64,000 nt of DNA. It comes from an uncultured Candidatus Bathyarchaeia archaeon. Its GTDB lineage: Archaea; Thermoproteota; Bathyarchaeia; TCS64. The stretch lies in contig CAZPMB010000001.1 of the NCBI GenBank assembly GCA_964587735.1, positions 15,464 to 79,463 on the forward strand. Direction: 5' to 3'. The stretch's first letter is position 1, and every line of letters starts with the position of its first letter. The notes below the pieces were generated by a model, which saw only the letters and a program-made list of their open reading frames with translations, was not told the origin of the DNA and ran no database searches. This document shows, piece after piece, positions 21,896 through 58,937 of this stretch. A program made the position numbers and the translations under genes.

Positions 21896-22064
21896 TACTC
21901 AATTCTTATTTCTTAATCTCTTAGGAGCTGAATCATATCTTCGTTTTCTCTGCTATTTTCCCGGTTTGAAATTATGGTAGTATCATTAAAGACATTTTTT
22001 ACAAGCTCAAGGGAAAAATTTAATATTCAGAAAATTTCTGAATATTAAATCGAGGTCAAATTTA

Positions 22065-22817
22065 TTGAAAAACACGCTTGATGCTGGTCAGGATATCGCT
22101 AAAAATGCTACAGATAAATTATTTGATAGCCACCTTAGGCCTTTGAGAAGCAAGAATGCAAGAACAATTTTTCAAACATTTGTCAATGCGAGAGATGTAA
22201 AATTTCTAACAACACTAGATCTTCAAACAAAACTTGACGAGCTCGGAATATTACTGTCTAAAAAGGAGATCAACGGATGGCTTCGTTCACTCTATGATGC
22301 AGGTTTAATCGCCAAAGAAGAAGACAGAGGGAAACCAACAACATTGGCGTATGATAACAAGTACACATTTGACATGTGGACGTTGACCGTAAAAGGGAAA
22401 GAAATTGCTGAAGGAATAGAAGAATTCTTAAAGGGAAAAACCGAGCCCGTTACGTTCCTCTCAGAAATGAAAATCGAGGAGATTGCTGTCGAGGCCGAGA
22501 AAATAAAGCAGCATATTCTTAGTAAAATAGATGAGTTATACATTCAACTCACTTGCCTTAGAAACCTGCACGTAGTCGATAGGGGTCTAACTATGAACGA
22601 TCTGAGGAGGAGCCTGATGCCTCAAGCCACAATATTTGAGGGAGCCTTCTTGAACTCCTTAAGGCAGGGCTTATTCGTAGAGGTTGATATACCTAAGGCT
22701 AATGGCCTGTTCTCGAGATTATTACATTTCATAGGCAGTTCTCAGAAGAGAGAACTTAGATATCATCTCACAGAAAAAGGAAGGCTTCTGACGGAACAAT
22801 TATGGTCAAAAACATAG
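22065..22817 (+). CDS. Hypothetical protein, likely winged-helix, encoded in a low-GC island
   Basis: 250 aa and AT-rich relative to its neighbours. Start ambiguous (TTG at 22065). wHTH-like segment INGWLRSLYDAGLIAKEED. Confidence 0.4.
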   Translation: MKNTLDAGQDIAKNATDKLFDSHLRPLRSKNARTIFQTFVNARDVKFLTTLDLQTKLDELGILLSKKEINGWLRSLYDAGLIAKEEDRGKPTTLAYDNKYTFDMWTLTVKGKEIAEGIEEFLKGKTEPVTFLSEMKIEEIAVEAEKIKQHILSKIDELYIQLTCLRNLHVVDRGLTMNDLRRSLMPQATIFEGAFLNSLRQGLFVEVDIPKANGLFSRLLHFIGSSQKRELRYHLTEKGRLLTEQLWSKT

Positions 22818-23179
22818 GAGCCCTAATTTCGTTAATAATGGTAGCAAATTTATCCGAATGTAAAGAGGCAATGGGCTCTCTCCTCAAAAATAGACAGAAT
22901 TTACATCCAATGCATTTGCGATTCTTTAATATGACACGGGATTAGTATTTGATACCTATTAATTAGGACGATAAAGAGGTAAATATTTGATAAAAATGGT
23001 GCAATTTTCTCTGCCTATCTTCGACACCTTATGATATACATACCTTCGAATTTTGGGACATTATTTCCAACCAAGTATATTGATTGTACCATCTCTGTGG
23101 CGAAAACAGGTTTCGATTCAATCGGGATGGGGCTTATATTGGCGAAGTTCTCCTGTTCTTAGGGTACTTTGGTTTGACG

Positions 23180-35927: not shown

Positions 35928-36959
35928 TCAGTATAGGTATTTTCTCATGTGCACCGGTGTAGCGTGAGGAAGGGGTAGGTCTTTCATTGTTTTGAAGCCG
36001 GGCTCGGCGTTTATCACGTGGGGTATCATGTTGGCCGTAATCGCTATGGTGCCGAAGTCGCCGTGAACGCATGGGGAGATCCTTTCTCTTATCGGGGGCT
36101 CGCCGTTTATGACGACGCTGTCGAACTCATCTGGGGCGCCTATGTAAGCCTTGAAGTCGAGGGTTATCAACGTCTTACCGCCTTTGACGCCGAAGGCCTT
36201 CTGCATCGTGCCGGCGTTGTATCCCTTCGGAACCTCAATGGCGTCGCTGGCGGCGTCGTGGTCGAGGACAACCGGTTGAACTGGATCTACTCTTATCTCG
36301 CTGAGCTCCCAGCAGAGGGCGTCGGCGATCATCTTTATCGACTGCTCAAGGCCGACGTGGCCTGTGATCTCGTGCTTCCTGATCTTCTCGTTGAACTCCT
36401 TCAGGGTCAGGCCCGCGCCTATCTTCTGCTGGAACGGTATCCTACGAGTCGCTGCGTTCATCTGTCTGGTAACGTATATGTCGTCGACCCTTGTGCAGAC
36501 GCCTGTCAGGACAATGGGGAGGGTGTCCATTAGGAAACCCGGGTTGATCCCTGTTCCTAGGAGAGCAGCGCCCTTCTCGTATGCGAGCTTGTCGAGCTTC
36601 TTCGCGTACTCAGCCCCTTCCCTGGTCGCGTATGGGTAGGACAGCTCCTCACAGGTCGATACGCAGTTAACGCTTTGGTTCAGGATCTGAACTAACTGGT
36701 CGTATGTCTGCTTCAGGTAAGACATGGTCGTGTGACATACTATGTCTGGCTTTGTTGTCGACAACACCTCGTCCGTGTCGCATGAGATTTTTACCCCCAA
36801 TTTCTTGAGCCCTAGAACCTCTCCCAGATCCTTCCCGACGATCTGGGGGTTTATGTCGATTGCACCAACAATCTCTATTCCCTCTTTGGAGAGAAGGTGG
36901 GTGGCGAGGCGACGGCCGATGACGCCTATTCCATAAGAAACTGCCTTTACCTTTTCCAA
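35928..36959 (-). CDS. DapB-like NAD(P)-dependent oxidoreductase (2,4-diaminopentanoate / amine dehydrogenase family)
   Basis: N-terminal Rossmann KAVSYGIGVIGRRLATHL...GAIDINPQ with the family's characteristic C-terminal domain (~343 aa). Confidence 0.55.
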   Translation of the reverse strand: MEKVKAVSYGIGVIGRRLATHLLSKEGIEIVGAIDINPQIVGKDLGEVLGLKKLGVKISCDTDEVLSTTKPDIVCHTTMSYLKQTYDQLVQILNQSVNCVSTCEELSYPYATREGAEYAKKLDKLAYEKGAALLGTGINPGFLMDTLPIVLTGVCTRVDDIYVTRQMNAATRRIPFQQKIGAGLTLKEFNEKIRKHEITGHVGLEQSIKMIADALCWELSEIRVDPVQPVVLDHDAASDAIEVPKGYNAGTMQKAFGVKGGKTLITLDFKAYIGAPDEFDSVVINGEPPIRERISPCVHGDFGTIAITANMIPHVINAEPGFKTMKDLPLPHATPVHMRKYLY

Positions 36960-37277
36960 TGTTAATCTGGACTATCAGTCATCTCGGGACTTTAAACCTT
37001 GCGCGACGAAGAAGTAGAATAACACGAACATCAATTGAATTAGTATATGGATGGCATATTCGATAAACTTCAATGCGTTAATAGCGGTGGCGCACAAAAT
37101 TGTATTTTTATGTATCAATCAAATCCATTACCCTTTTTGAGGATTTCCATGACCTATTGAGCTCTATAGATACTTAGTACAATCGTATCAGGAACTATGC
37201 AATCAGAACAATATCAAATGCGCTCTAGATTGTCTCAAAATGTAGAGATAAAGAAGGCTTTTTATGGGATAAAAAAT

Positions 37278-38657
37278 CTACTGACCACGCTTGTAACGCC
37301 TAAGGGCGGCGTCGGCCGCGACCAACAGCGGGTCGTACAGCTCCGACACGGCAGGACAGTAAGCGAGCTCTATCGTGCTGAACTCCTCGATGTCCATGCC
37401 CTTTTTAATGGCCAGTGCGATGACGTTGACTCGCCAGGCGGCCCCTTCCTCTCCAACCGCCTGCCCTCCGAGGATCCGTCCTGTCTCTGCGTCGACTACA
37501 ACCTTAACGGAGATATTCTTTGTATCAGGCATCCAGTTCGGTTTGACCTGCATGTTCGCCCTGCCTGTGATGACCTTAAAACCGTTGTTTTCTGCGATCT
37601 CTGAGTTGTATCCCGCAGAGGCGATCTCGAGCTCGCCCACGAAGGATACGAAGGTGCCCAGCCCCCCGTCGTATTTCATGTCGCCGCCAGCCGCGTTTAT
37701 TCCTGCAACGATAGCCTGCCTAAAGGCAGTTGTCGCGAGGGCTATATTCGTCGGCTTTTTATCTACCCCGCTAAAGGACATTACGCAGTCGCCGACCACA
37801 TAGACGCCTTTAACGCTCGTCTCCATCCTCTCATCGGCTATTATCGCCCCATGATCATGTGCCAGACCAGCCTTGACTGCTAGCTCAGACTCCGGATCAA
37901 CACCAACGGCCATTACCACTATGTCAGTAGGGATCTTCTCCCCTGCGATCTCAACCAACTCAACCCTATCCCTGCCATTTATCTTGTCGAACCCCTTGCC
38001 GAAGAGGATGCGAAGGCCTTTGGATTCTAGATAACTGCGTACGAGCTCGCCCATGTCGGGGTCCAAGTTCCTTGGGAACGGCGGTGGGCTTCTCTTTGTC
38101 ACCGATACATCCAGCCCTAGTTCTTTCAGGGCCACGGCGATTTCAAGCCCGATTGCGCCGCCCCCAACCACCACGGCCCTCTTGCTCCTCAATGCCGCAT
38201 CCCTGAGCTCCTTGGCGTTCTCAGGGTTCGTCACGACGTAAACTCCTCGTCCCATGAACTCTTTAGCCCCTGGGATCGGAAGGATGGTAGGTTTACTACC
38301 AGTGGCGATGATTAGTGAGTCATAGTCGAGCCAAAAAACCTCCCCTGATTCGAGGTTCTTTACCTCGACACGCCTGCCCTCTGTGTCTATCGACAAAGCT
38401 TCATGCTTTAGAAGCTTATGCAGCTGCCTTGTAACAGGGACTGTATGCTTCAGGTCCTCGAAGCTCGAGACCTTGCCCTCGATGGCGTAGGGGAGACCGC
38501 AGGGGGAGAACATATCGTAGTCGCGTTTCTCGATGATAGTGATCTCCGCGTCCCTATCAACTCTTGTCGCTGCCCTCGAGGCGTATAGTCCCCCTGTTCC
38601 TAGGCCTATGATGACGATCTTACGTGAACGATGTGATGAATCCCTCTTTACACCCAT
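37278..38657 (-). CDS. CoA-disulfide reductase / NADH oxidase family flavoprotein
   Basis: IVIIGLGTGGLYAS FAD site, single redox Cys in FSPCGLPYAIEG, and a second Rossmann VVVGGGAIGLEIA. Confidence 0.8.
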   Translation of the reverse strand: MGVKRDSSHRSRKIVIIGLGTGGLYASRAATRVDRDAEITIIEKRDYDMFSPCGLPYAIEGKVSSFEDLKHTVPVTRQLHKLLKHEALSIDTEGRRVEVKNLESGEVFWLDYDSLIIATGSKPTILPIPGAKEFMGRGVYVVTNPENAKELRDAALRSKRAVVVGGGAIGLEIAVALKELGLDVSVTKRSPPPFPRNLDPDMGELVRSYLESKGLRILFGKGFDKINGRDRVELVEIAGEKIPTDIVVMAVGVDPESELAVKAGLAHDHGAIIADERMETSVKGVYVVGDCVMSFSGVDKKPTNIALATTAFRQAIVAGINAAGGDMKYDGGLGTFVSFVGELEIASAGYNSEIAENNGFKVITGRANMQVKPNWMPDTKNISVKVVVDAETGRILGGQAVGEEGAAWRVNVIALAIKKGMDIEEFSTIELAYCPAVSELYDPLLVAADAALRRYKRGQ

Positions 38658-38817
38658 GCCCTTTAATCCCTCTTACGAAGGAGCCATACCTTTTTAATCC
38701 TTTTTATCTCTCATCTTTTTTCAATTCAGCATATAATCGTCCTTTTTTCTCCATTAACTGAATGCAGCGTAAGTGTTCCATACCAGAAATAATTCGATTC
38801 AAATTATCAGGTCAGAG

Positions 38818-39918
38818 TTAATGCACGACATCCTGTATCTTTTTCCTCAACTCCCTCCCTCTAGAGCGTTCAAGCCTTGCCTTGAATATACTAAGTGAAA
38901 CGATCTGCTGGTCGAAGGAGATCGTCATCTCGGGGGAGAGATATGTTATGTTGGCGCTTCCAAATGAATCTGGAAATCTCTTCCTGTAACCTTCTTCCCA
39001 TCTCAGATGATCGCTTATATCACGATGATTACCAAACAATAACAAATTGTATCTCTCGTGAATGACCTTAATCGCAATCGGAATGTGCGGGTCCTTTCTT
39101 ATCTCCTCCATCACCTTGTCTCTGGAGTCTTTGATCTCAAGCAGCGAGTAAGTCATAATGTAATTGGGAGGAACGAAGAAACTTGGGAAACGGCACATCG
39201 GCTCGGAGATCAACTCTTCTTTGAGTAGCAACCCTATTCTCTTCTCTATAGTCTTCCTGTGTAAACCGGTCTTTTGGCAGAGCAGCGACTGATTTGTCTT
39301 CATTCCCTCTCCCGAAACAAGGCATTTCATTATTTTTATATCGGTCTCGTCAAGAGAATGCCCATTTATAGTCAGTTCGCCCTCGTCTCTGAAATCCTTC
39401 TCAATAAGGGATATCCCTGAGCTGGGGCTGTATTTTATCATGAGCTGATTCGAAAAATAGGCGGTGCTGGAAACAAATCTCGTGTCTTTGTCGGGCACGT
39501 TATACCTTATTTTTAGAACTGAGGGTATGGAGTCCATCCATATCTGGTAGCTCGTGATGCTTTCATGGTAGATGAACAGCACCATGTTGTACTCGCCTTG
39601 CCGCGACCTGAATGCAGCGAAGATATGGGGATCCTCTTTCACCCACTTGATGAACCTCTCATCCTCCGGCAGATTCATGCGAACAACAACTAAAAGGGGA
39701 TAAACCTTGTAAAGTCCGAGAAAAGGACATATAGGACGATCAAGAATTTTTCGGTCAAAAATGAGGTCAACCTTCTTCTTTATGGTGTTTCTGTGCTTGT
39801 CTAGTAATTTGGAAAGGGCGTTGAAATTCACGCTCACGGATTCCCCTGAGACGAGGCTCTCGAGTAGAATGAGGTTTTCCTTGTCTTCGAACAGATCCGA
39901 CATGCAATAGATTTGCAT
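38818..39918 (-). CDS. Tandem-duplicated Lrp/AsnC-like regulator (two HTH+RAM-like units in one 366-aa protein)
   Basis: Unit 1 LLESLVSGESVSVNFNALSKLLDKHRNTIKKKVDLIFDRKILDRPIC... and unit 2 IMKCLVSGEGMKTNQSLLCQKTGLHRKTIEKRIGLLLKEELISEPMC..., each followed by an alpha/beta segment. Low GC. Confidence 0.45.
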   Translation of the reverse strand: MQIYCMSDLFEDKENLILLESLVSGESVSVNFNALSKLLDKHRNTIKKKVDLIFDRKILDRPICPFLGLYKVYPLLVVVRMNLPEDERFIKWVKEDPHIFAAFRSRQGEYNMVLFIYHESITSYQIWMDSIPSVLKIRYNVPDKDTRFVSSTAYFSNQLMIKYSPSSGISLIEKDFRDEGELTINGHSLDETDIKIMKCLVSGEGMKTNQSLLCQKTGLHRKTIEKRIGLLLKEELISEPMCRFPSFFVPPNYIMTYSLLEIKDSRDKVMEEIRKDPHIPIAIKVIHERYNLLLFGNHRDISDHLRWEEGYRKRFPDSFGSANITYLSPEMTISFDQQIVSLSIFKARLERSRGRELRKKIQDVVH

Positions 39919-40159
39919 TTGACAATATTTATATTTTTTCTGTTACGAAGTGCAATAAATGCTATATAAATAAATCTATATTAAGATACTATTTATATCC
40001 AAAAAATATAAATTAATTGGCAAATATGCTGTAATACAAATTGAATAAATGATTAAAAATCGTCTTTTTCTTATATATTTTGTAATTGTAATTTAATTGC
40101 TCCCCTTTGATTAACATTTGCTTGAAGAATGATGAAATGAGAAGCTGGAGGGTCTTCTG

Positions 40160-41380
40160 ATGGAAAATGTGTCAGTCGATCTGCAAATACACCAAATAGC
40201 AGTCCTTGAAGAGATACTAGAGAATATAAACATCACGGCTTTAGAGGACAGGTGGGGGCCGGAGAAGGTCATCAGGGTTTACGACTCTGACATAGGAATG
40301 GAGGGCATCCTATGCATCGACAACACCGCACTGGGACCAGGTAAGGGTGGCATGAGAATTCGAGCCGGTGTCACCCCTGTGGAGGTGTTCAATCTCGCCC
40401 GTACGATGACCTGGAAGTGTGCATTGGCCGATCTCCCATTTGGTGGGGCCAAGGGGGGGATAAACGCTGACCCGTACACAATCGACAAGATAAAGTACAT
40501 GAAGTCCTTCGCCAGGTCAATCGCCGTGTTCTGCCCAAATCAGTGGGTCTCGGCGCCGGACATGAACGTGGGCGAGAAAGAGATAGAAGCCTTCGTCGAG
40601 GAGATCGGCGACCTAAAGGCAGCCACCGGAAAGCCGGAGAAACTTGGGGGCATCCCTCATGAACTCGGCACGACCGGGTTCGGCGTCGGCGTCTCCATCG
40701 AAACAGCCCTAGAGGTCCTTTCTCAGGTTGTCCCCATAAAGGATTCACTCGCAGGCCTGAAGGTAGCGATACAGGGATTTGGCAACGTAGGATCTGAGCT
40801 CGCAAAGTACCTTGCAAACAACGGCGCGAAGATCGTAGGCGTTAGCGACTACTGGGCAGCGGTCTATAACAGCGACGGGATAGACATCTCAAAGCTGCTG
40901 AAGCACTCCTACGCAACCGATGAAGCTCATTCTGTCAAGTATTGCAAGGGGGCGACTGAAATCCCGAGGGACGACCTTCTCTACGTCGATTGCGACATCC
41001 TTGTTCCCGCCGCCATCTCTAAGGTAATCACGGCCCAAAACGCGAGCCGGATCAAGGCAAAACTAGTTGTTGAGGCGGCGAACATACCGACAACTCCGGA
41101 AGCCGAGGAGATACTATTCAAACGAGGCGTCCTTGTGATGCCCGACATGCTTGTAAACGCCGGAGGAGTAATTGGCTCGTATGTGGAGTACCTTGGAAAG
41201 AGCGCAGATGAGGCGTTCTCCATGATAGAATCAAAGATCGGTAAGAACACCAAGGAAGTGCTCGAAACCGCGATAAACAGCGGGAATATAACACTGCCGA
41301 GGGCAATAGCGATGAAGATCGCGATGGACCGCGTCTCCAGAGCCATGCGCCAACGCAGTGGCTCTAAGGTCTTTGATTGA
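40160..41380 (+). CDS. gdhA: Glu/Leu/Phe/Val-family amino-acid dehydrogenase (glutamate dehydrogenase-like)
   Basis: Catalytic Lys/Gly motif LPFGGAKGGI and NAD(P) Rossmann GFGNVGSELAKYL. Confidence 0.8.
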   Translation: MENVSVDLQIHQIAVLEEILENINITALEDRWGPEKVIRVYDSDIGMEGILCIDNTALGPGKGGMRIRAGVTPVEVFNLARTMTWKCALADLPFGGAKGGINADPYTIDKIKYMKSFARSIAVFCPNQWVSAPDMNVGEKEIEAFVEEIGDLKAATGKPEKLGGIPHELGTTGFGVGVSIETALEVLSQVVPIKDSLAGLKVAIQGFGNVGSELAKYLANNGAKIVGVSDYWAAVYNSDGIDISKLLKHSYATDEAHSVKYCKGATEIPRDDLLYVDCDILVPAAISKVITAQNASRIKAKLVVEAANIPTTPEAEEILFKRGVLVMPDMLVNAGGVIGSYVEYLGKSADEAFSMIESKIGKNTKEVLETAINSGNITLPRAIAMKIAMDRVSRAMRQRSGSKVFD

Positions 41381-41397
41381 GGAAGGGAGGTGAGAAA

Positions 41398-41682
41398 ATG
41401 GAAGGTAAAATGCTTAGAATCTTGCAGACGCTTGATGTGGCCTCGTCTCCGTGTCCTTTGGGGTACATCTCTCTCCACACGAACATAGTTGAGCCTCTCA
41501 AGATGATGGAGGCGTTGGAGAGCGAGGGTTACTGCCGTCGATGCCCTAGCAGCGACTGGTCCCCGAGCAGGTCTCCGATGTTCGAGATCACCCAAAAGGC
41601 GCGACAGGAGCTCAAACAACTTGAGGCAAGCGTTCTACAAGTACCGCTCAGCGTCGTCGCGCAGACCATAACTCGCAACTAA
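41398..41682 (+). CDS. Hypothetical protein
   Basis: 94 aa starting at the ATG with a GGAGGTGA Shine-Dalgarno (the track's TTG is at 41377). Contains C..C/C..C (SPCPLG...CRRCP). Confidence 0.35.
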   Translation: MEGKMLRILQTLDVASSPCPLGYISLHTNIVEPLKMMEALESEGYCRRCPSSDWSPSRSPMFEITQKARQELKQLEASVLQVPLSVVAQTITRN

Positions 41683-41819
41683 GGTGTTCTCCCTCAATCA
41701 ACGGCGACGGCCGAATGGGCATCACTAACTTTTTTATAGACACAGTTTGGTTCGTTATAGAGGTCTGACGAATAGATGAATCGGTTTTATCCACAAATCG
41801 GTGAAGATAATTGAACGCG

Positions 41820-42842
41820 ATGTTATTGGAAAAGGTTAGGATCCCCTGGGCGGTGGCAAACCTGTCAAAGGAATACAAGGTCTTCGGCCCTGTCACCCGG
41901 AGATCTTATGTGTCGTTCCAAGAAATACCCAATGGAGAAGGGCTCAATCTCGAATATACTACTACCACATTGCCCCCTAAGAAGCTCTTCCACCACGCTG
42001 AGACATTATTACATTACCATAAAGAAGATTTCTCTGCCCCAAAGTTAGAATCAGATCAACATGTCCTGCTGTTTGGCGTACACCCATGCGACCTCAATGC
42101 CATCCAAAGGATGGACAAGTTCTTCTCGAAGGACTACATTGACTCATACTATTGTAGACGACGGGAAAGGTCGGCAATAGTTGCCCTCAACTGTGGAGTA
42201 CCAGATGACAAGTGCTTCTGCGCCTCCCTAGGAACTGGCCCCGACGTAAAAGAGGGGTTCGACCTACTCTTGACGGATCTAGGAGAGGCTTACCTTGTGG
42301 AGGTTGGGACCTCAAAGGGCAAAACCATGGTCGCAAAGCTAGGACTCAAGAACGCCTCTCAGACCCATTTCCACGAGAAGGCAAGGCGACTTAGAGAGGC
42401 AAGTAAAAAGTTTAAAAAACAAATCCGGATGGAGGGACTGGCAAAACAAGCAGCCGAGAATCCTAACCACGAGGCCTGGGCACTCATTGGCGACAGAGGA
42501 GGTCTCGCCGGCTGTTTCGCGTGTCTGTCCTGCGGTAACTGCAGCATGGTCTGTCCAACGTGCTACTGCTACGAGGTCGCAGAAATCCCCGATGTCTCAC
42601 TGAAAGAGGGGATCAGGAAAAGGGAGCTCGACTCTTGCCAGCTCCTAGAGTATGCCCTGGTGGCCCTCGGCCAGAACTTCAGGCCTGATAGGAGGTACCG
42701 TACACGCCATTGGATGACTTGTAAATTCGGTGGTGCTGGCGGACAGCAGAACACGAGCTGTGTGGGATGTGGCAGGTGCATCAGGTCTTGTCCCTCCCAC
42801 ATCGACCTGACCGAGGTGGCAAGGAGCCTCTGGGGGGAGTGA
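41820..42842 (+). CDS. hydB: Group 3b NiFe hydrogenase beta subunit (sulfhydrogenase HydB / AsrA-like Fe-S subunit)
   Basis: Two [4Fe-4S] motifs CLSCGNCSMVCPTCYC and CVGCGRCIRSCP. First gene of the four-gene hyd operon. Confidence 0.75.
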   Translation: MLLEKVRIPWAVANLSKEYKVFGPVTRRSYVSFQEIPNGEGLNLEYTTTTLPPKKLFHHAETLLHYHKEDFSAPKLESDQHVLLFGVHPCDLNAIQRMDKFFSKDYIDSYYCRRRERSAIVALNCGVPDDKCFCASLGTGPDVKEGFDLLLTDLGEAYLVEVGTSKGKTMVAKLGLKNASQTHFHEKARRLREASKKFKKQIRMEGLAKQAAENPNHEAWALIGDRGGLAGCFACLSCGNCSMVCPTCYCYEVAEIPDVSLKEGIRKRELDSCQLLEYALVALGQNFRPDRRYRTRHWMTCKFGGAGGQQNTSCVGCGRCIRSCPSHIDLTEVARSLWGE

Positions 42843-42843
42843 T

Positions 42844-43689
42844 ATGGAGAATCCGTTGATGCCGAGGAAGGCTATCATCAAGAAGATCGAGATAGAGACC
42901 TACGACTCCAAGACTTACACGTTCGAGTTCGAAGACGGAGGCCCGAAGGGATTGGATTTCAACCCCGGTCAGTTCGTTATGTTATCCATATTAGGGTATG
43001 GAGAGGCTGCAATATCCATAGCCCATGACCCCGATGACAAGTCAGGGCTCGACCTGACGATTAGGAACGTTGGGAGCGTTACTGACGCCCTGTCCCGCAT
43101 GAAGGTCGGGGATCTGGTCGGCATAAGGGGGCCTTACGGCAACGGCTGGCCAATAGATGACGCTGTAGGAAAACGAATACTATTGATCAGCGGTGGTTGC
43201 GGATGCGGCACCATCACGCCCATCATCCTGGCTCACAGGAACGACCAGTCTAGGTTCAAGTTCGTGGAGGTCCTCCATGGCGCGAGGACCCCCAACGACA
43301 TCATCTACAGGAAACACTACGAGGAGATCTGGCCTAAAATCCCTAACTGCAACGTGCTGCTATCATCCGACACGGTGCCACCGGGACAGACGTGGAAACA
43401 CAAGGTCGGCTTCGTCTTATCGCTGTTAAAGGATATGAAGTCCACACCTGAGGACACACTGGCCTTCATGTGCGGGCCAGAGGTCATGATGAAGTTCACC
43501 GCCCTCGACATGTTGAAAATGGGATTCTCCGAGGACCAGATCTACTGCTCCATGGAGAGGAGGATGAGGTGCGGCTTAGGGCTCTGCGGCCACTGCCAGC
43601 TTGGTTCAAAATACGTCTGCAAGGATGGACCGGTCTTTTCATATGCGGAGCTGCAGGAGCTCCCGGATCACATTATAAGGGGGAGCTGA
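42844..43689 (+). CDS. hydG: Group 3b NiFe hydrogenase gamma subunit (FAD/NAD(P)-binding, [2Fe-2S])
   Basis: FNR-like fold (FNPGQFVMLS...GGCGCGTITP) and C-terminal CSMERRMRCGLGLCGHCQ cluster motif. Confidence 0.8.
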   Translation: MENPLMPRKAIIKKIEIETYDSKTYTFEFEDGGPKGLDFNPGQFVMLSILGYGEAAISIAHDPDDKSGLDLTIRNVGSVTDALSRMKVGDLVGIRGPYGNGWPIDDAVGKRILLISGGCGCGTITPIILAHRNDQSRFKFVEVLHGARTPNDIIYRKHYEEIWPKIPNCNVLLSSDTVPPGQTWKHKVGFVLSLLKDMKSTPEDTLAFMCGPEVMMKFTALDMLKMGFSEDQIYCSMERRMRCGLGLCGHCQLGSKYVCKDGPVFSYAELQELPDHIIRGS

Positions 43690-43690
43690 T

Positions 43691-44446
43691 ATGTCGAAGC
43701 TGAAGTGTGGTTTCTTCAAGTTCACGGGCTGCGCGGGCTGCCAGATGGAAGTCCTTAGGGCAGAGGATGTCCTTCCTCAGATGCTAGAGCACGTTGAGAT
43801 AGCTTATTGGCCCATGGTGACCAGCAAGGGCTGGGAGGTGGATCTAGACGTTGCCTTCATAGAGGGCTCTGTCTCGACGCCAAGGGAAATTAGGGAGATC
43901 AAAGAGATCCGTGAGCGAACCAAGGTCTTAGTTGCCTTTGGCGATTGCGCGGTCACGGGCTGCATCCCCTCGATCAGGAACTTCATGACCCAGAGAGAGG
44001 CTGAGAAGGCAGTCTATCTGCATCCTTCTTGGATTGAATCGATCGGATTGAGGGGCATCTATGAGTACGTTGATGTGGAGGTCAGCCTGCCCGGGTGCCC
44101 GCCCCACAGAGACACCATCCTAGAGGTTGTAAAGGGGGCCGCACTCAAAAGGAGGCCCTACCTCAGGCGCCACGCTGTCTGCATCGAGTGCAAGCTAAAG
44201 GACAACGGCTGCCTCCTCACCGAGGAGAAACGACCGTGCATGGGACCTGTGACAAACGCTGGTTGCGGGGCAATCTGTCCAAGCTATAATCGCGAGTGCG
44301 AGGGGTGTTATGGTCCAATGAGCGCCCCAAACGCTGAATCCCTAGCAAAGATCCTTCTGGAGACGGGTATCACAGAGGAGGACGTGAAGAGGAAGTTCCG
44401 GAAGTATGCCGGTTGGACTCCAGATTTCATTAGGGAGGCGATGTAG
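43691..44446 (+). CDS. hydD: NiFe hydrogenase small subunit (group 3, delta)
   Basis: FTGCAGCQMEV...GDCAVTGC...LPGCPP proximal/medial cluster ligands. Confidence 0.85.
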   Translation: MSKLKCGFFKFTGCAGCQMEVLRAEDVLPQMLEHVEIAYWPMVTSKGWEVDLDVAFIEGSVSTPREIREIKEIRERTKVLVAFGDCAVTGCIPSIRNFMTQREAEKAVYLHPSWIESIGLRGIYEYVDVEVSLPGCPPHRDTILEVVKGAALKRRPYLRRHAVCIECKLKDNGCLLTEEKRPCMGPVTNAGCGAICPSYNRECEGCYGPMSAPNAESLAKILLETGITEEDVKRKFRKYAGWTPDFIREAM

Positions 44447-44447
44447 A

Positions 44448-45734
44448 ATGAAAGAGCGCGAGATAAGAGTCGAGTACGTGTCCAGGGTCGAAGGTCAAGG
44501 AGCAGTTGACCTTTTCGTCTCAAAGGATGGGGAGCTCATAGACGCCAAGGTCCGCGTTTATGAGCCCACTCGCTTCTTCGAGGCTCTTATGGTTGGGAGA
44601 AAATACGACGAACTCATGGAGCTTGCAGCTAGGATCTGCGGCATCTGCCCTGTCTCCCACGAGATAACGGCTCTTCGGGCCGTTGAGGAGGCCATTGGCC
44701 TAGAGGTAAGCGAGGCTACCAAGAGACTAAGAAAGCTAATGGCGATGAGCGCCTTCATCAGCAGCCACGTACTCAGCATCTATTTCCTCACCCTACCTGA
44801 TTACTTCGGATATAACGACCTCATCGAGGTGGCGAAGGAGAACCCTGAACTCTTGAAACGGGGCTTTGAACTTAAGAAACTAGGCAATGACCTGACAGAG
44901 CTGATCGGTGGTAGATCCGTCCACCCCGTCACTGCGGTCGTCGGCAGGTTCACCAACGCGATAAAGAAGCGGGATGCTGAAACGATGAGGAAGCGCTTTA
45001 TCGAGGCTAAAAGTGATGCTCTGGAGACTGTTGACCTCTTCAAGGGGCTGGAGATACCGAAGTTCACGAGGAAATGCGAGCATATGGCAATCAGCAGTCC
45101 CGAGGAATATGCCATCAACGAGGGAATGCTCGCCTCCACGGAAGGGATCAAAGTTCCTCAGAGGGAGTACCGACAGTTTGTCGAGGAAAACCAGGTACAA
45201 CACTCGAACGCCAAGCACTCAAACGTGAAGGGTCGAACATCCTATCTCGTTGGGCCACTCGCAAGGGTCAACATCAACTTAGATCAGCTGTCCCCGGATG
45301 CGAGAAGAGCGGCTAAGAGCGTGGGGCTTAATGTCCCGAACTACAGCCCATTCAAATCGCCTATCGCCAGGGCTGTAGAGGTCGTCCACTGCATCGACGA
45401 ATGCGCAGAGATCCTTGAAACCATGCCATATAGCGAGGAGCCCAGCCTGATCAAGTTGAGGGCAGGTGACGGCTATGCCATCACGGAGGCGCCTAGGGGC
45501 ATCAATTACCACCATTATTCACTGAATAGGGGTGGCATCGTAACAAAGGCGGACATTGCGCCACCAACCTGCCAGAACTACAGGAACATGGAGATGGACC
45601 TCATAGAGCTCGTTCCCACCATCCTAGACCTACAGGACGATGAGATCGCTCACAGGTGCCAGATGCTCATACGGGCGTACGACCCCTGCATCTCATGCTC
45701 GGTCCACTCCATTAAGATTCACAAGGTAAAATAA
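44448..45734 (+). CDS. hydA: NiFe hydrogenase large subunit (group 3b, alpha)
   Basis: N-terminal RICGICPVSH (RxCGxCxxxH) and C-terminal DPCISCSVH (DPCxxCxxH) Ni-Fe ligands. ATG at 44448 is 1 nt after the hydD stop. Confidence 0.9.
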   Translation: MKEREIRVEYVSRVEGQGAVDLFVSKDGELIDAKVRVYEPTRFFEALMVGRKYDELMELAARICGICPVSHEITALRAVEEAIGLEVSEATKRLRKLMAMSAFISSHVLSIYFLTLPDYFGYNDLIEVAKENPELLKRGFELKKLGNDLTELIGGRSVHPVTAVVGRFTNAIKKRDAETMRKRFIEAKSDALETVDLFKGLEIPKFTRKCEHMAISSPEEYAINEGMLASTEGIKVPQREYRQFVEENQVQHSNAKHSNVKGRTSYLVGPLARVNINLDQLSPDARRAAKSVGLNVPNYSPFKSPIARAVEVVHCIDECAEILETMPYSEEPSLIKLRAGDGYAITEAPRGINYHHYSLNRGGIVTKADIAPPTCQNYRNMEMDLIELVPTILDLQDDEIAHRCQMLIRAYDPCISCSVHSIKIHKVK

Positions 45735-57435: not shown

Positions 57436-57889
57436 ATTCCACCATTGGAAAACCTTAGGATAAAAAATCAACGACCAACTAGTGACTGTGACGTTGTCAG
57501 ATTTATAGAACCATAGCAATTTTTCGCGCCAGCAGGCTTCTATCCTATAACCCATTTACAATTTTTTTTAGGAGCTTTGTCCCCATTGACCCAACAAGAA
57601 CTCGCTTCATAACTCTATGGATGACTATGGTCATATCTGCATCGACCTCAACCATCATCTGATTCGACTGACAACGCCGTTGGATTGTTGTGAGAACTAA
57701 CAGAGAATAGAATTAGTTGCCTTGGCCTCGCCAGTGTCGCACTAAACCGAGCTTGAAATGAATAGAATGAAACCTGAGAGGGGAAAAGAAGACATAACTC
57801 TTTTTAGCTCTCACTAAGTTATAGTTTCTATGTCCAATAAAGCTATAATTGAATTTTACTATATGAAATAAAGGTAAAATGGCAGGATA

Positions 57890-58171
57890 TTAAGAAAACC
57901 ATTTAATATAGTGTGATCTACGTTCATTAAACCTCTTTTTTAACTCTTTCAGTATTACGCCTCCACCTATTAAGATGGATGATGCTAACAAGATGAAACC
58001 AAGACTGAGGTATGCGACAACAGACCATACCACGCCAGTCTGTACTCCAATATTAAAAACTCGAGCCAAAAAGTAGCCTAGAAAGGGTATGAACAACTCA
58101 TCAGGAGTGGGAATAATTATATAGATTGCCAAGACCATTAGAACAAAGGCGAGTGGTGTTCTTTTCATCAT
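57890..58171 (-). CDS. Hypothetical small membrane protein in an AT-rich island
   Basis: 93 aa, 2-3 predicted transmembrane helices, low GC; weak support. Confidence 0.3.
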   Translation of the reverse strand: MMKRTPLAFVLMVLAIYIIIPTPDELFIPFLGYFLARVFNIGVQTGVVWSVVAYLSLGFILLASSILIGGGVILKELKKRFNERRSHYIKWFS

Positions 58172-58937
58172 GATTCGAAGTCTGACAAATTCGACCTATG
58201 CCATTTCCGGTGTCTCAAACGATGGCTATTCTGTATTGTTACAAATTGACTTTAAAAAGTCTTAATAGCTTTTATCCAGTTAACATATATGTACAATGAA
58301 TTGTTAGATCCATACGTGCAGGAGTCTATTTCTTTTTTTGTACAAATTCCCCTTTTATTGCATTTAATTTGTTAAAATTCAAATAATATTTTCAAATAAT
58401 ATTTATTTCTTTAAACAATTTAATTGCGTTATATGTCGCAAAAATTAGAGACATTACTTTAATATACGGAACTTTACACGTATAAGTTAAACAACCCCTT
58501 CTGATATGAGAAAAAATCTAACCCTTTTTTATTTGCAATGAACTCCACAAACGCGCGCGTGGATTTTAAGTTAAAATACATTGGGCCTATATCTGGCGAC
58601 AGTGTGACAATAGACCAATTGGACGCATTGGATTTTAGAATTGAGGTTCCCCCCAAACAATTGATTTCGTGGGCAACTTTATATACGCTGGACAAAGAAT
58701 TACGCATCAATAGCTATCTGGTCTTTTTACTTTTCAAATTTTTTTTTATTCTCCTATCCATATTTCAACAATCTTAAGCAATTCAAAGAACATTCTGGTA
58801 AATTTCAAGTATTGTTGTATTCTCGTCGAACACACATAATTTCGAAACAAACATTCTCTCAATATGTTAAACGAATCGATGAACGCTAAGCATGATGATA
58901 GACAATAATAATGGAAGTTTTCACACGATTCAGCAAC

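Follow-up and report, generated by a model that had tools for sequence, protein, structure and literature searches.

A covalently fused double-unit Lrp/AsnC-type protein, encoded divergently from a glutamate-dehydrogenase-like gene, as a candidate regulator in Bathyarchaeia and Asgard archaea

Among the regulators of the Lrp/AsnC type, Ptr2 of Methanocaldococcus and Ss-LrpB of Sulfolobus are homodimers on palindromic boxes, acting from sites upstream of the B recognition element and the TATA box (BRE/TATA). The set of classical members used for comparison here comprises FL11/PH1519 and PH0140 of Pyrococcus, Lrp and AsnC of E. coli, AldR of M. tuberculosis and Grp/ST1022 of Sulfolobus. The same fold is met in siroheme decarboxylases, the NirDL (4ch7/4czc) and AhbA/AhbB (4czd) proteins, among which NirDL is the only solved single-chain protein with two Lrp-like units. 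The conserved catalytic HxYxR motif of AhbA/B and NirDL lines a cavity between the beta-sheet domains (PMC4145669). The present analysis concerns a gene for a tandem protein of this fold in a 64,000-nucleotide stretch (64 kb, hereafter the window) of contig CAZPMB010000001.1 of an uncultured Candidatus Bathyarchaeia archaeon, where it is transcribed divergently from a gene of the glutamate dehydrogenase (GDH) family, named gdh-like below. By its fold and helix-turn-helix (HTH) signature, the tandem protein is a member of the Lrp/AsnC superfamily and a covalently fused double unit. It is read here, with a probability of about 65%, as a specific, putatively DNA-binding single-chain regulator of the divergent gdh-like promoter region and of itself. 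In the searchable literature and the main review of archaeal Lrp proteins, neither a tandem Lrp-type regulator nor the present family was found to be described.

The duplication is seen in direct comparison of the N half (residues 1-180) with the C half (residues 181-366), which align by BLASTP with E=7e-16 and 26% identity over 123 residues, and in the alignment of the family profiles of the two halves by hhalign (98.5% probability, E=2e-15). In the AlphaFold2 (AF2) model of the tandem protein, obtained with a 37-sequence alignment (pLDDT 88.1, pTM 0.84), both halves are composed of a winged HTH (wHTH) of the H-H-E-H-H order and a following beta-alpha-beta-beta-alpha-beta core, with an extra hairpin and helix. 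Both features by which a protein is assigned to Lrp/AsnC (feast/famine regulatory proteins, FFRP), the N-terminal AsnC-type wHTH and the RAM-type beta-alpha-beta-beta-alpha-beta domain, are thereby present, and whole-monomer superposition on Lrp/AsnC structures was seen in structure comparison of the model, for which two methods were in agreement. The preliminary description of this DNA, made from its letters and open reading frames (ORFs), had proposed a covalently duplicated Lrp/AsnC-like protein of 366 aa with two successive HTH and RAM-like units, to be checked by structure prediction of each half; the RAM-type fold is found in both halves, and this structural proposal holds.

The family relationship is supported by profile methods. 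Against the sequences of the PDB, the family profile gave weak, consistent matches to PH0140 (E=0.005), PH1519/FL11 (0.02) and NMB0573 (0.03), with the alignments to PH0140 and PH1519 spanning the HTH and RAM. Two orthologues, P0117 and P0070, exceed the Pfam gathering thresholds for HTH_AsnC-type and HTH_24 on the C-unit, and HTH_AsnC-type was matched in 27 of 37 members at E<=0.1, while the Pfam family DUF1441, matched in 33 of the 37, covers only an HTH stretch of 22-25 residues and adds no information. The distant relatives P0214 and P0217, tandem proteins of 330-345 aa carrying HTH_AsnC-type twice together with AsnC_trans_reg, are reached by the profile at E of 1e-6 to 1e-5. The family itself counts more than 320 proteins, with lengths of ~360-400 aa and full-length identities of 58-93%. 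Most of them come from metagenome genomes of Bathyarchaeia, and they are annotated as "hypothetical protein" or, occasionally, as "Lrp/AsnC family". An exhaustive profile search of 1.84 billion representatives returned just 122 matches, with ~13 full-length clusters at 50% identity, and the family is therefore compact and distinct. Across it, both recognition helices are invariant (H-R-x-T), and the HTH of the C-unit follows the AsnC-type pattern T-[IV]-x-x-R-[IV]-x-x-L-x-x-x-G-x-I. The net charge of both HTH regions is +3.8 with the RAM-like cores acidic or neutral, and the motif QGEY(D/N) resembles the TGxYD motif of Lrp.

The mechanically called ORF (38818..39918, minus strand), which contains both motifs quoted in the preliminary description, encodes 366 aa from an upstream in-frame ATG at 39918. 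However, Met6 (ATG at 39903) is almost certainly the real start, giving 361 aa, because all homologues begin there, because public gene calls contain exactly the 361-aa sequence and lack the 366-aa form, and because a conserved TATA-like element lies ~27 nt upstream of this ATG. Between the two ATG codons, at 39901-39918, there is a perfect inverted repeat TGCAA-N5-TTGCA (minus strand ATGCAAATCTATTGCATG), which overlaps the start codon and was observed in the window lineage only, not in L001-L003.

The genomic context was surveyed in 48 fetched loci (numbered with L), in each of which the gene was found once. The divergent arrangement of the regulator gene with the gdh-like gene of the ELFV family and an ORF of 94 aa, s94, is present in Bathyarchaeia (the window, L001-L004 and L015), in Prometheoarchaeota (L008), Atabeyarchaeia (L009) and Hermodarchaeum (L020), and in Thorarchaeota and their relatives (L031, L033, L046, L047). 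In 'Parvarchaeota' (L034, L036) and in L041, gdh is the sole divergent partner of the regulator, and in Thermoplasmatota (L043-L045) a gdh-like gene of equal orientation lies downstream of it. Thus, the position divergent from a glutamate-dehydrogenase-family gene, pointed out already in the preliminary description, is conserved across phyla. The spacer between gdh and the regulator is 254-256 nt in Bathyarchaeia, Prometheo-, Atabey- and Hermodarchaeia and 264 nt in Thorarchaeota, and the trees of the regulator and gdh, built by quick neighbour-joining, are broadly congruent; synteny, spacer length and congruent trees together indicate that the regulator, gdh and s94 evolve as a cassette.

In at least 19 loci of a large Bathyarchaeia clade, the divergent partner is, instead of gdh, a strictly conserved operon of two small ORFs, MrpD, NuoH, NuoB, a GltD-like oxidoreductase and a NiFe hydrogenase (the Mrp-linked clade). 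The gdh-s94 pair is always followed by a redox module linked to NAD(P)H, namely, a sulfhydrogenase-like NiFe hydrogenase in the window, NuoE/F-like and glutamate-synthase-like genes in L004, and GXGXG, HoxH and glutamate-synthase-like genes in L007. The shared theme of these neighbourhoods is amino-acid/glutamate-linked redox metabolism with reductant disposal. The four loci of Thorarchaeota and relatives (L031, L033, L046, L047) contain, besides the divergent gdh-s94, two extra ELFV-dehydrogenase paralogues, 32-36% identical to the window gdh and located ~1.4-4.2 kb downstream of the regulator start.

The divergent spacer was searched for cis elements with spacer alignments (A2, A3) and gapless profiles anchored on the start codons. 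Its GC content of 24.2% fits a double promoter. The TAT(T/A)AATA element is kept at equal distance from the regulator ATG across phyla, and its distance of ~27 nt from the Met6 ATG would imply a leaderless regulator mRNA. The search for binding sites in this spacer, suggested in the preliminary description, yielded a position-fixed candidate operator of 13 nt, box c, with the asymmetric family consensus ATGG(T/C)ATTTATTG fixed at -54 or -62. In a Gibbs search, box c reached 10.4-10.7 bits, compared to 7.7-8.9 bits in shuffles. The position weight matrix (PWM) gave 57 hits of >=10 bits in 418 kb of loci, 26 of them within the 100-nt zone upstream of the regulator gene, and the window box c is the best PWM match of the whole window (15.2 bits). 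With the PWM trained only on the Mrp-linked clade, the window box c is first of ~30,000 positions (14 bits, 15-kb segment); this matrix ranks the box first in L001 and L036 as well, and picks the gdh-proximal box in L008. In the Mrp-linked clade, inverted copies of the box, on which there had been no training, recur at -147 to -149 and are turned towards the divergent operon. A tentative box b is a conserved column block (A3) with PWM matches at -128 in L003, L004 and L015 and a score of <6 bits for the window copy. Upstream of gdh, TTTGTAATT-N4-5-TTTAA(A/T) is conserved in the Bathyarchaeia, Asgard and 'Parvarchaeota' loci.

The inverted boxes of L005, L006 and L010-L029, at -54 (plus strand) and -147 to -149 (minus strand), are ~95 bp apart from centre to centre, and two boxes of L008 are ~126 bp apart. 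These distances come near to whole numbers of helical turns (~9 and ~12) and would fit proteins bound cooperatively to the same side of the DNA, which is suggestive only. Two PWM candidates were discarded, the match of 18 bits in L020, which lies inside a coding region and was treated as chance, and that at window position 37051 (11.5 bits), upstream of the 2,4-diaminopentanoate-dehydrogenase-like (Ord-like) gene, which is not present in the syntenic L001 and L002, so that no regulon claim is made from it. The scan for sigma-70 promoters and intrinsic terminators, unsuited to archaeal promoters, gave no excess over shuffles. The repeats found by unguided search in the AT-rich spacer were many, short and indistinguishable from chance, and the cross-species footprinting was used instead.

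The reading of the tandem protein as a specific regulator is favoured by the invariant AsnC-type recognition helices, the basic HTHs and the divergent transcription from conserved partners. The two complete units of wHTH and RAM type, fused head to tail, would form a single-chain pseudo-dimer, within which the two RAM-like domains would most likely pack together like the subunits of a classical Lrp dimer, and such a pseudo-dimer would present two non-identical, related basic HTHs to DNA. Indirect support for such a pairing of the beta-sheets comes from the superposition of 227 residues on the fused NirDL and of ~165 residues on two-domain ferredoxin-like barrels, and from the pTM of 0.84. The pseudo-dimer may bind the asymmetric box of ~13 bp that precedes the BRE/TATA in its own leaderless promoter, which would result in autoregulation, and may bind the related boxes beside the gdh TATA as well, with the gdh-like dehydrogenase, the 94-aa wHTH protein and the NAD(P)-linked NiFe hydrogenase as the target operon. 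The RAM-like core would sense a small-molecule signal tying in amino-acid oxidation and reductant disposal; we infer an amino acid or a related metabolite as the effector and, equally, the direction of the regulation. A broader proposal, which is tentative and at present rather doubtful, would see here a new class of archaeal transcription factor, common to Bathyarchaeia and a number of Asgard lineages: a Lrp pseudo-dimer, obligately single-chain, with diverged HTHs reading an asymmetric operator, and dedicated to linking the oxidation of amino acids (GDH-like) as a switch to redox modules of NAD(P)H/H2 (sulfhydrogenase, Mbh/Mrp-GltD), with operators on both divergent promoters integral helical turns apart (~95 and ~126 bp), allowing looping or wrapping.

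Several observations weigh against the regulator reading. The window protein itself is below the Pfam thresholds, with HTH_24 matched in the second half at E=0.0095 (15.9 vs 21.9 bits) and HTH_AsnC-type likewise sub-threshold, its NCBIfam scan returned nothing meaningful, and the RAM domain is missed by sequence, PF01037 matching one of 37 members (E=0.037). The best full-length structural match of the model is an enzyme, NirDL, fused as well. The conservation of 58-93% identity across orders is very high and unusual for a transcription factor, and the beta-sheet cores contain numerous His, Tyr, Asn and Trp residues that are invariant and would suit a catalytic or cofactor site too. As to the cis elements, the box was not recovered by the cross-clade PWM in L003, L009, L020, Thorarchaeota and L041, the window gdh-proximal box has no match to the PWM, and the conserved boxes could really be bound by s94, the second wHTH protein of the cassette.

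According to a first alternative, the tandem protein is a global or architectural Lrp-like chromatin protein or a broad regulator, its adjacency to gdh being historical or due to co-transfer, whereas specific regulation of the gdh operon and binding to the boxes fall to s94. Lrp-family proteins can be global or architectural, Sa-Lrp reportedly being an example, and the very high conservation of the family with one gene per fetched locus agrees with such a role; s94, for its part, has a confident wHTH fold like that of Sso10a and MarR and is co-conserved with gdh. However, the position-fixed box is found also in ~19 Bathyarchaeia loci without gdh-s94, inverted towards the other operon, and because the box is present where the gdh-s94 neighbour is absent, it tracks the tandem gene and not s94; on this ground we infer that box c belongs to the tandem Lrp. 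The PWM matches of >=10 bits are also rare elsewhere, being three in the window, one of which is the site itself. This alternative is accordingly considered unlikely.

The second alternative takes the tandem protein for an enzyme, or a protein processing a cofactor or metabolite, that has retained the Lrp fold as AhbA/B and NirDL have, with the inter-RAM cleft as the active or ligand site, the HTHs vestigial, and a function in the metabolism of the neighbouring dehydrogenase/hydrogenase genes. The unusual conservation and the invariant polar and aromatic residues of the cores, listed above, speak in its favour. However, the catalytic HxYxR occurs nowhere in the sequence of any of the 37 family members, by which a siroheme decarboxylase, defined by this feature, is ruled out; among the PDB sequences, AhbA/B and NirDL are unmatched at E<=10 while Lrp/AsnC regulators match, and no NirDL-like Pfam family is among the family matches. 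Haem-pathway radical-SAM genes (ahbC, ahbD, nirJ) are absent from the seven annotated loci, which show gdh-like, hydrogenase, glutamate-synthase-like or Mrp/Nuo-like neighbours, the sole trace of a haem or haem d1 linkage being a faint 130-aa Radical_SAM fragment in L007. The recognition helices, invariant (HRxT) and basic in both units, do not agree with vestigial HTHs, and transcription divergent from the partner, with no co-transcription, is typical of a regulator. An enzymatic or related function is thus improbable.

The third alternative arose from the composition. As the preliminary description had indicated, the GC content of the regulator gene (44.2-44.4%) is well under that of its neighbours (52-59%), and it is the second lowest among the 55 window genes (mean 52.9%, sd 3.8). 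The AT-rich flanking spacers described together with it are real, but not unusual, because the 26 window spacers average 39.8% GC. In the six relatives examined, the regulator lies 5-11 GC points under its neighbours, except for L006, where it is within their range, and its GC content at the third codon position (GC3) tracks each host genome, e.g., 0.92 in L005 and 0.74 in L001. The deficit in the window gene is at codon positions 1 and 2 (GC1 0.45, GC2 0.31), since F/Y/M/I/N/K make up as much as 33% of the protein and G/A/R/P no more than 17%. The amino-acid composition and the window codon usage predict 47.6% GC and explain ~60% of the deficit, while the residual of -0.034 after the amino-acid composition is within the spread of other window genes. 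No tRNA, mobility gene, integrase or repeats flank the regulator gene, the scans for Rfam families and tRNAs were without a match in the spacers and in the window as a whole, and neither the synonymous-site composition, nor the placement in relatives, nor the borders bear the signatures of a horizontally acquired island. A recently acquired foreign low-GC island carrying the regulator, for which the low GC content relative to the neighbours had been put forward, is therefore highly improbable, given the relative deficit that recurs in relatives except L006, the GC3 that follows the host, the ordinary residual and the conserved synteny and spacer length. The horizontal acquisition suggested in the preliminary description is accordingly not supported; conservation of the gene with the same GC in related genomes had been named beforehand as what would refute it, and the gene is conserved with the same relative deficit. 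The cassette as a whole may have moved laterally in ancient times, considering that Asgard and Bathyarchaeia sequences interleave in the trees, and this is a separate claim drawn from quick neighbour-joining trees and the taxonomy of metagenome-assembled genomes.

The real compositional outlier of the window is an ORF of 250 aa at 22065-22817 (plus strand), with GC of 39.8% and GC3 of 0.40, which is 10 points below its amino-acid-predicted GC, has a weak HTH_45 match only, and is bordered by spacers of 28-34% GC (21896-22064 and 22818-23083). A foreign origin is more plausible for this ORF than for the regulator gene. A region of 1.38 kb at 57556-58937 with 34.5% GC is unexplained, its sole ORF of 93 aa (57890-58171) having no Pfam match and the region no Rfam or tRNA match. 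Furthermore, the first 8200 positions of the window have ~60% GC and GC3 of 0.67-0.85, with ~50-52% GC in the remainder and the shift near 8.2 kb.

Table 1. Features of the tandem regulator gene, its divergent spacer and the neighbouring genes (window coordinates; residues in 366-aa numbering).
Feature	Position	Strand	Details
2,4-Diaminopentanoate-dehydrogenase-like (Ord-like; ornithine fermentation) gene	35928-36959	-	downstream of the regulator
CoA-disulfide-reductase (CoADR)-like gene	37278-38657	-	downstream of the regulator
3' spacer of the regulator	38658..38817		35.6% GC; ordinary intergenic region with the CoADR-like gene promoter
Tandem Lrp/AsnC-like coding sequence	38818..39903	-	361 aa from Met6; stop codon 38818-38820
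C-terminal Lrp-like unit	38821..39378	-	residues 181-366
C-unit long basic C-terminal helix			residues 337-365
C-unit beta-alpha-beta-beta-alpha-beta core	38938-39159	-	~residues 254-327
C-unit wHTH	39217-39348	-	~residues 191-234; AsnC-type signature LHRKTIEKRIGLLLKEELI
N-terminal Lrp-like unit	39379..39903	-	residues 6-180
N-unit beta-alpha-beta-beta-alpha-beta core	39451-39696	-	~residues 75-156; Lrp-like motif QGEY(D/N)xxLF; then extra beta-hairpin and helix
N-unit wHTH	39751-39882	-	~residues 13-56; recognition helix KHRNTIKKKV
Divergent promoter spacer, regulator/gdh-like	39904..40159		256 nt; 24.2% GC, most AT-rich spacer of the window
Predicted regulator TATA box	39926..39933	-	TATAAATA; centred ~27 nt upstream of Met6 ATG
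Candidate operator box c	39953..39965	-	ATAGCATTTATTG; starts at -62 from the regulator ATG
Tentative box b	40017..40032	-	ACAGCATATTTGCCAA; ~-128 from the regulator ATG; weaker relative of box c
gdh-proximal conserved block	40080..40099	+	TTGTAATT box (40080-40087) abutting predicted gdh TATA TTTAATTG (40092-40099)
gdh Shine-Dalgarno	40147-40152	+	GGAGGG
ELFV-family amino-acid dehydrogenase, GDH-like	40160..41380	+	presumed target; Pfam ELFV_dehydrog 4e-55
s94, 94-aa winged-helix protein	41398..41682	+	always directly downstream of the gdh-like gene in the cassette
Four-gene group-3b sulfhydrogenase-like NiFe hydrogenase (HydB/G/D/A-like)	41811..45734	+	NCBIfam sulfhyd_Shy/Hyd 1e-48 to 1e-78

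Among the neighbouring genes (Table 1), the gdh-like protein scores 238 bits against the cut-off of 750 bits for archaeal GdhA, and its substrate specificity is therefore uncertain. The s94 protein has no Pfam or NCBIfam family match; its AF2 model (pLDDT 86) is of wHTH topology, with Foldseek matches to the MarR family, Sso10a-2, STIV F93 and APE_0880a, and its invariant residues are Cys19, His27, Thr28, Asn29 and Trp54. Since it is co-conserved with gdh across the Bathyarchaeia and Asgard loci, s94, on the basis of its modelled fold, may be a second putative DNA binder or regulator of the cassette. The hydrogenase genes score under the equivalog cut-offs of NCBIfam sulfhyd_Shy/Hyd; hydB follows s94 in L001 and L002 too, and the cluster is probably in one transcription unit with gdh-s94, which suggests an operon (40160-45734) that links the oxidation of amino acids with the turnover of NAD(P)H/H2. 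The amine-dehydrogenase and CoADR genes, to which the regulator was said to be adjacent in the preliminary description, are indeed present downstream of it, but this arrangement (35928-38657, minus strand) is common only to the nearest relatives, L001 and L002. In the alignment with these two, the spacer 38658..38817, which has no match in Rfam, shows conservation of an A-rich stretch that resembles a TATA box and lies ~30 nt upstream of the CoADR ATG.

In sediments, Bathyarchaeia and Asgard archaea are abundant; most of them are uncultured, they are believed to subsist mainly on peptides and amino acids, and to our knowledge almost nothing is known about the regulation of this metabolism in them. 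The present family is among the most conserved regulator-like genes beside their GDH-like and hydrogenase operons. If it represents a single-chain Lrp, a tractable in-vitro entry to gene regulation in these organisms would be available, with a defined protein, a 256-bp control region and a candidate 13-bp box. It would also be a natural case of a fused homodimeric factor whose DNA-reading heads diverge and recognise asymmetric sites, as well as a sister case to the Lrp-fold enzymes AhbA/B and NirDL, informative for the switch of the fold between regulation and catalysis.

In comparison with the known systems, the likeness to NirDL consists in two Lrp-like units forming one pseudo- or heterodimer and is a resemblance of architecture only; the identity is ~8-10%, no sequence relationship is detectable, and the genomic context is without haem-pathway genes. 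The uncharacterised tandem Lrp/AsnC proteins P0214 and P0217 from metagenomes are two-unit proteins as well, weakly related by profile, but their canonical domains are above threshold, whereas the present family is a separate tight clade with its own synteny. With Ptr2 and Ss-LrpB, it shares the location of the candidate box upstream of BRE/TATA and the several boxes per control region. In contrast to the classical Lrp/AsnC proteins, the two units, 26% identical, are here in one 361-aa chain, so that the predicted 'dimer' would be obligatory, with unlike halves, the candidate box lacks the palindromic symmetry of theirs, and each unit bears an extra C-terminal beta-hairpin and helix, with neither RAM found by Pfam PF01037. 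Thus, the tandem protein differs from every characterised Lrp-type regulator in being a predicted obligate single-chain pseudo-dimer with diverged halves, extra C-terminal elements and an asymmetric candidate operator.

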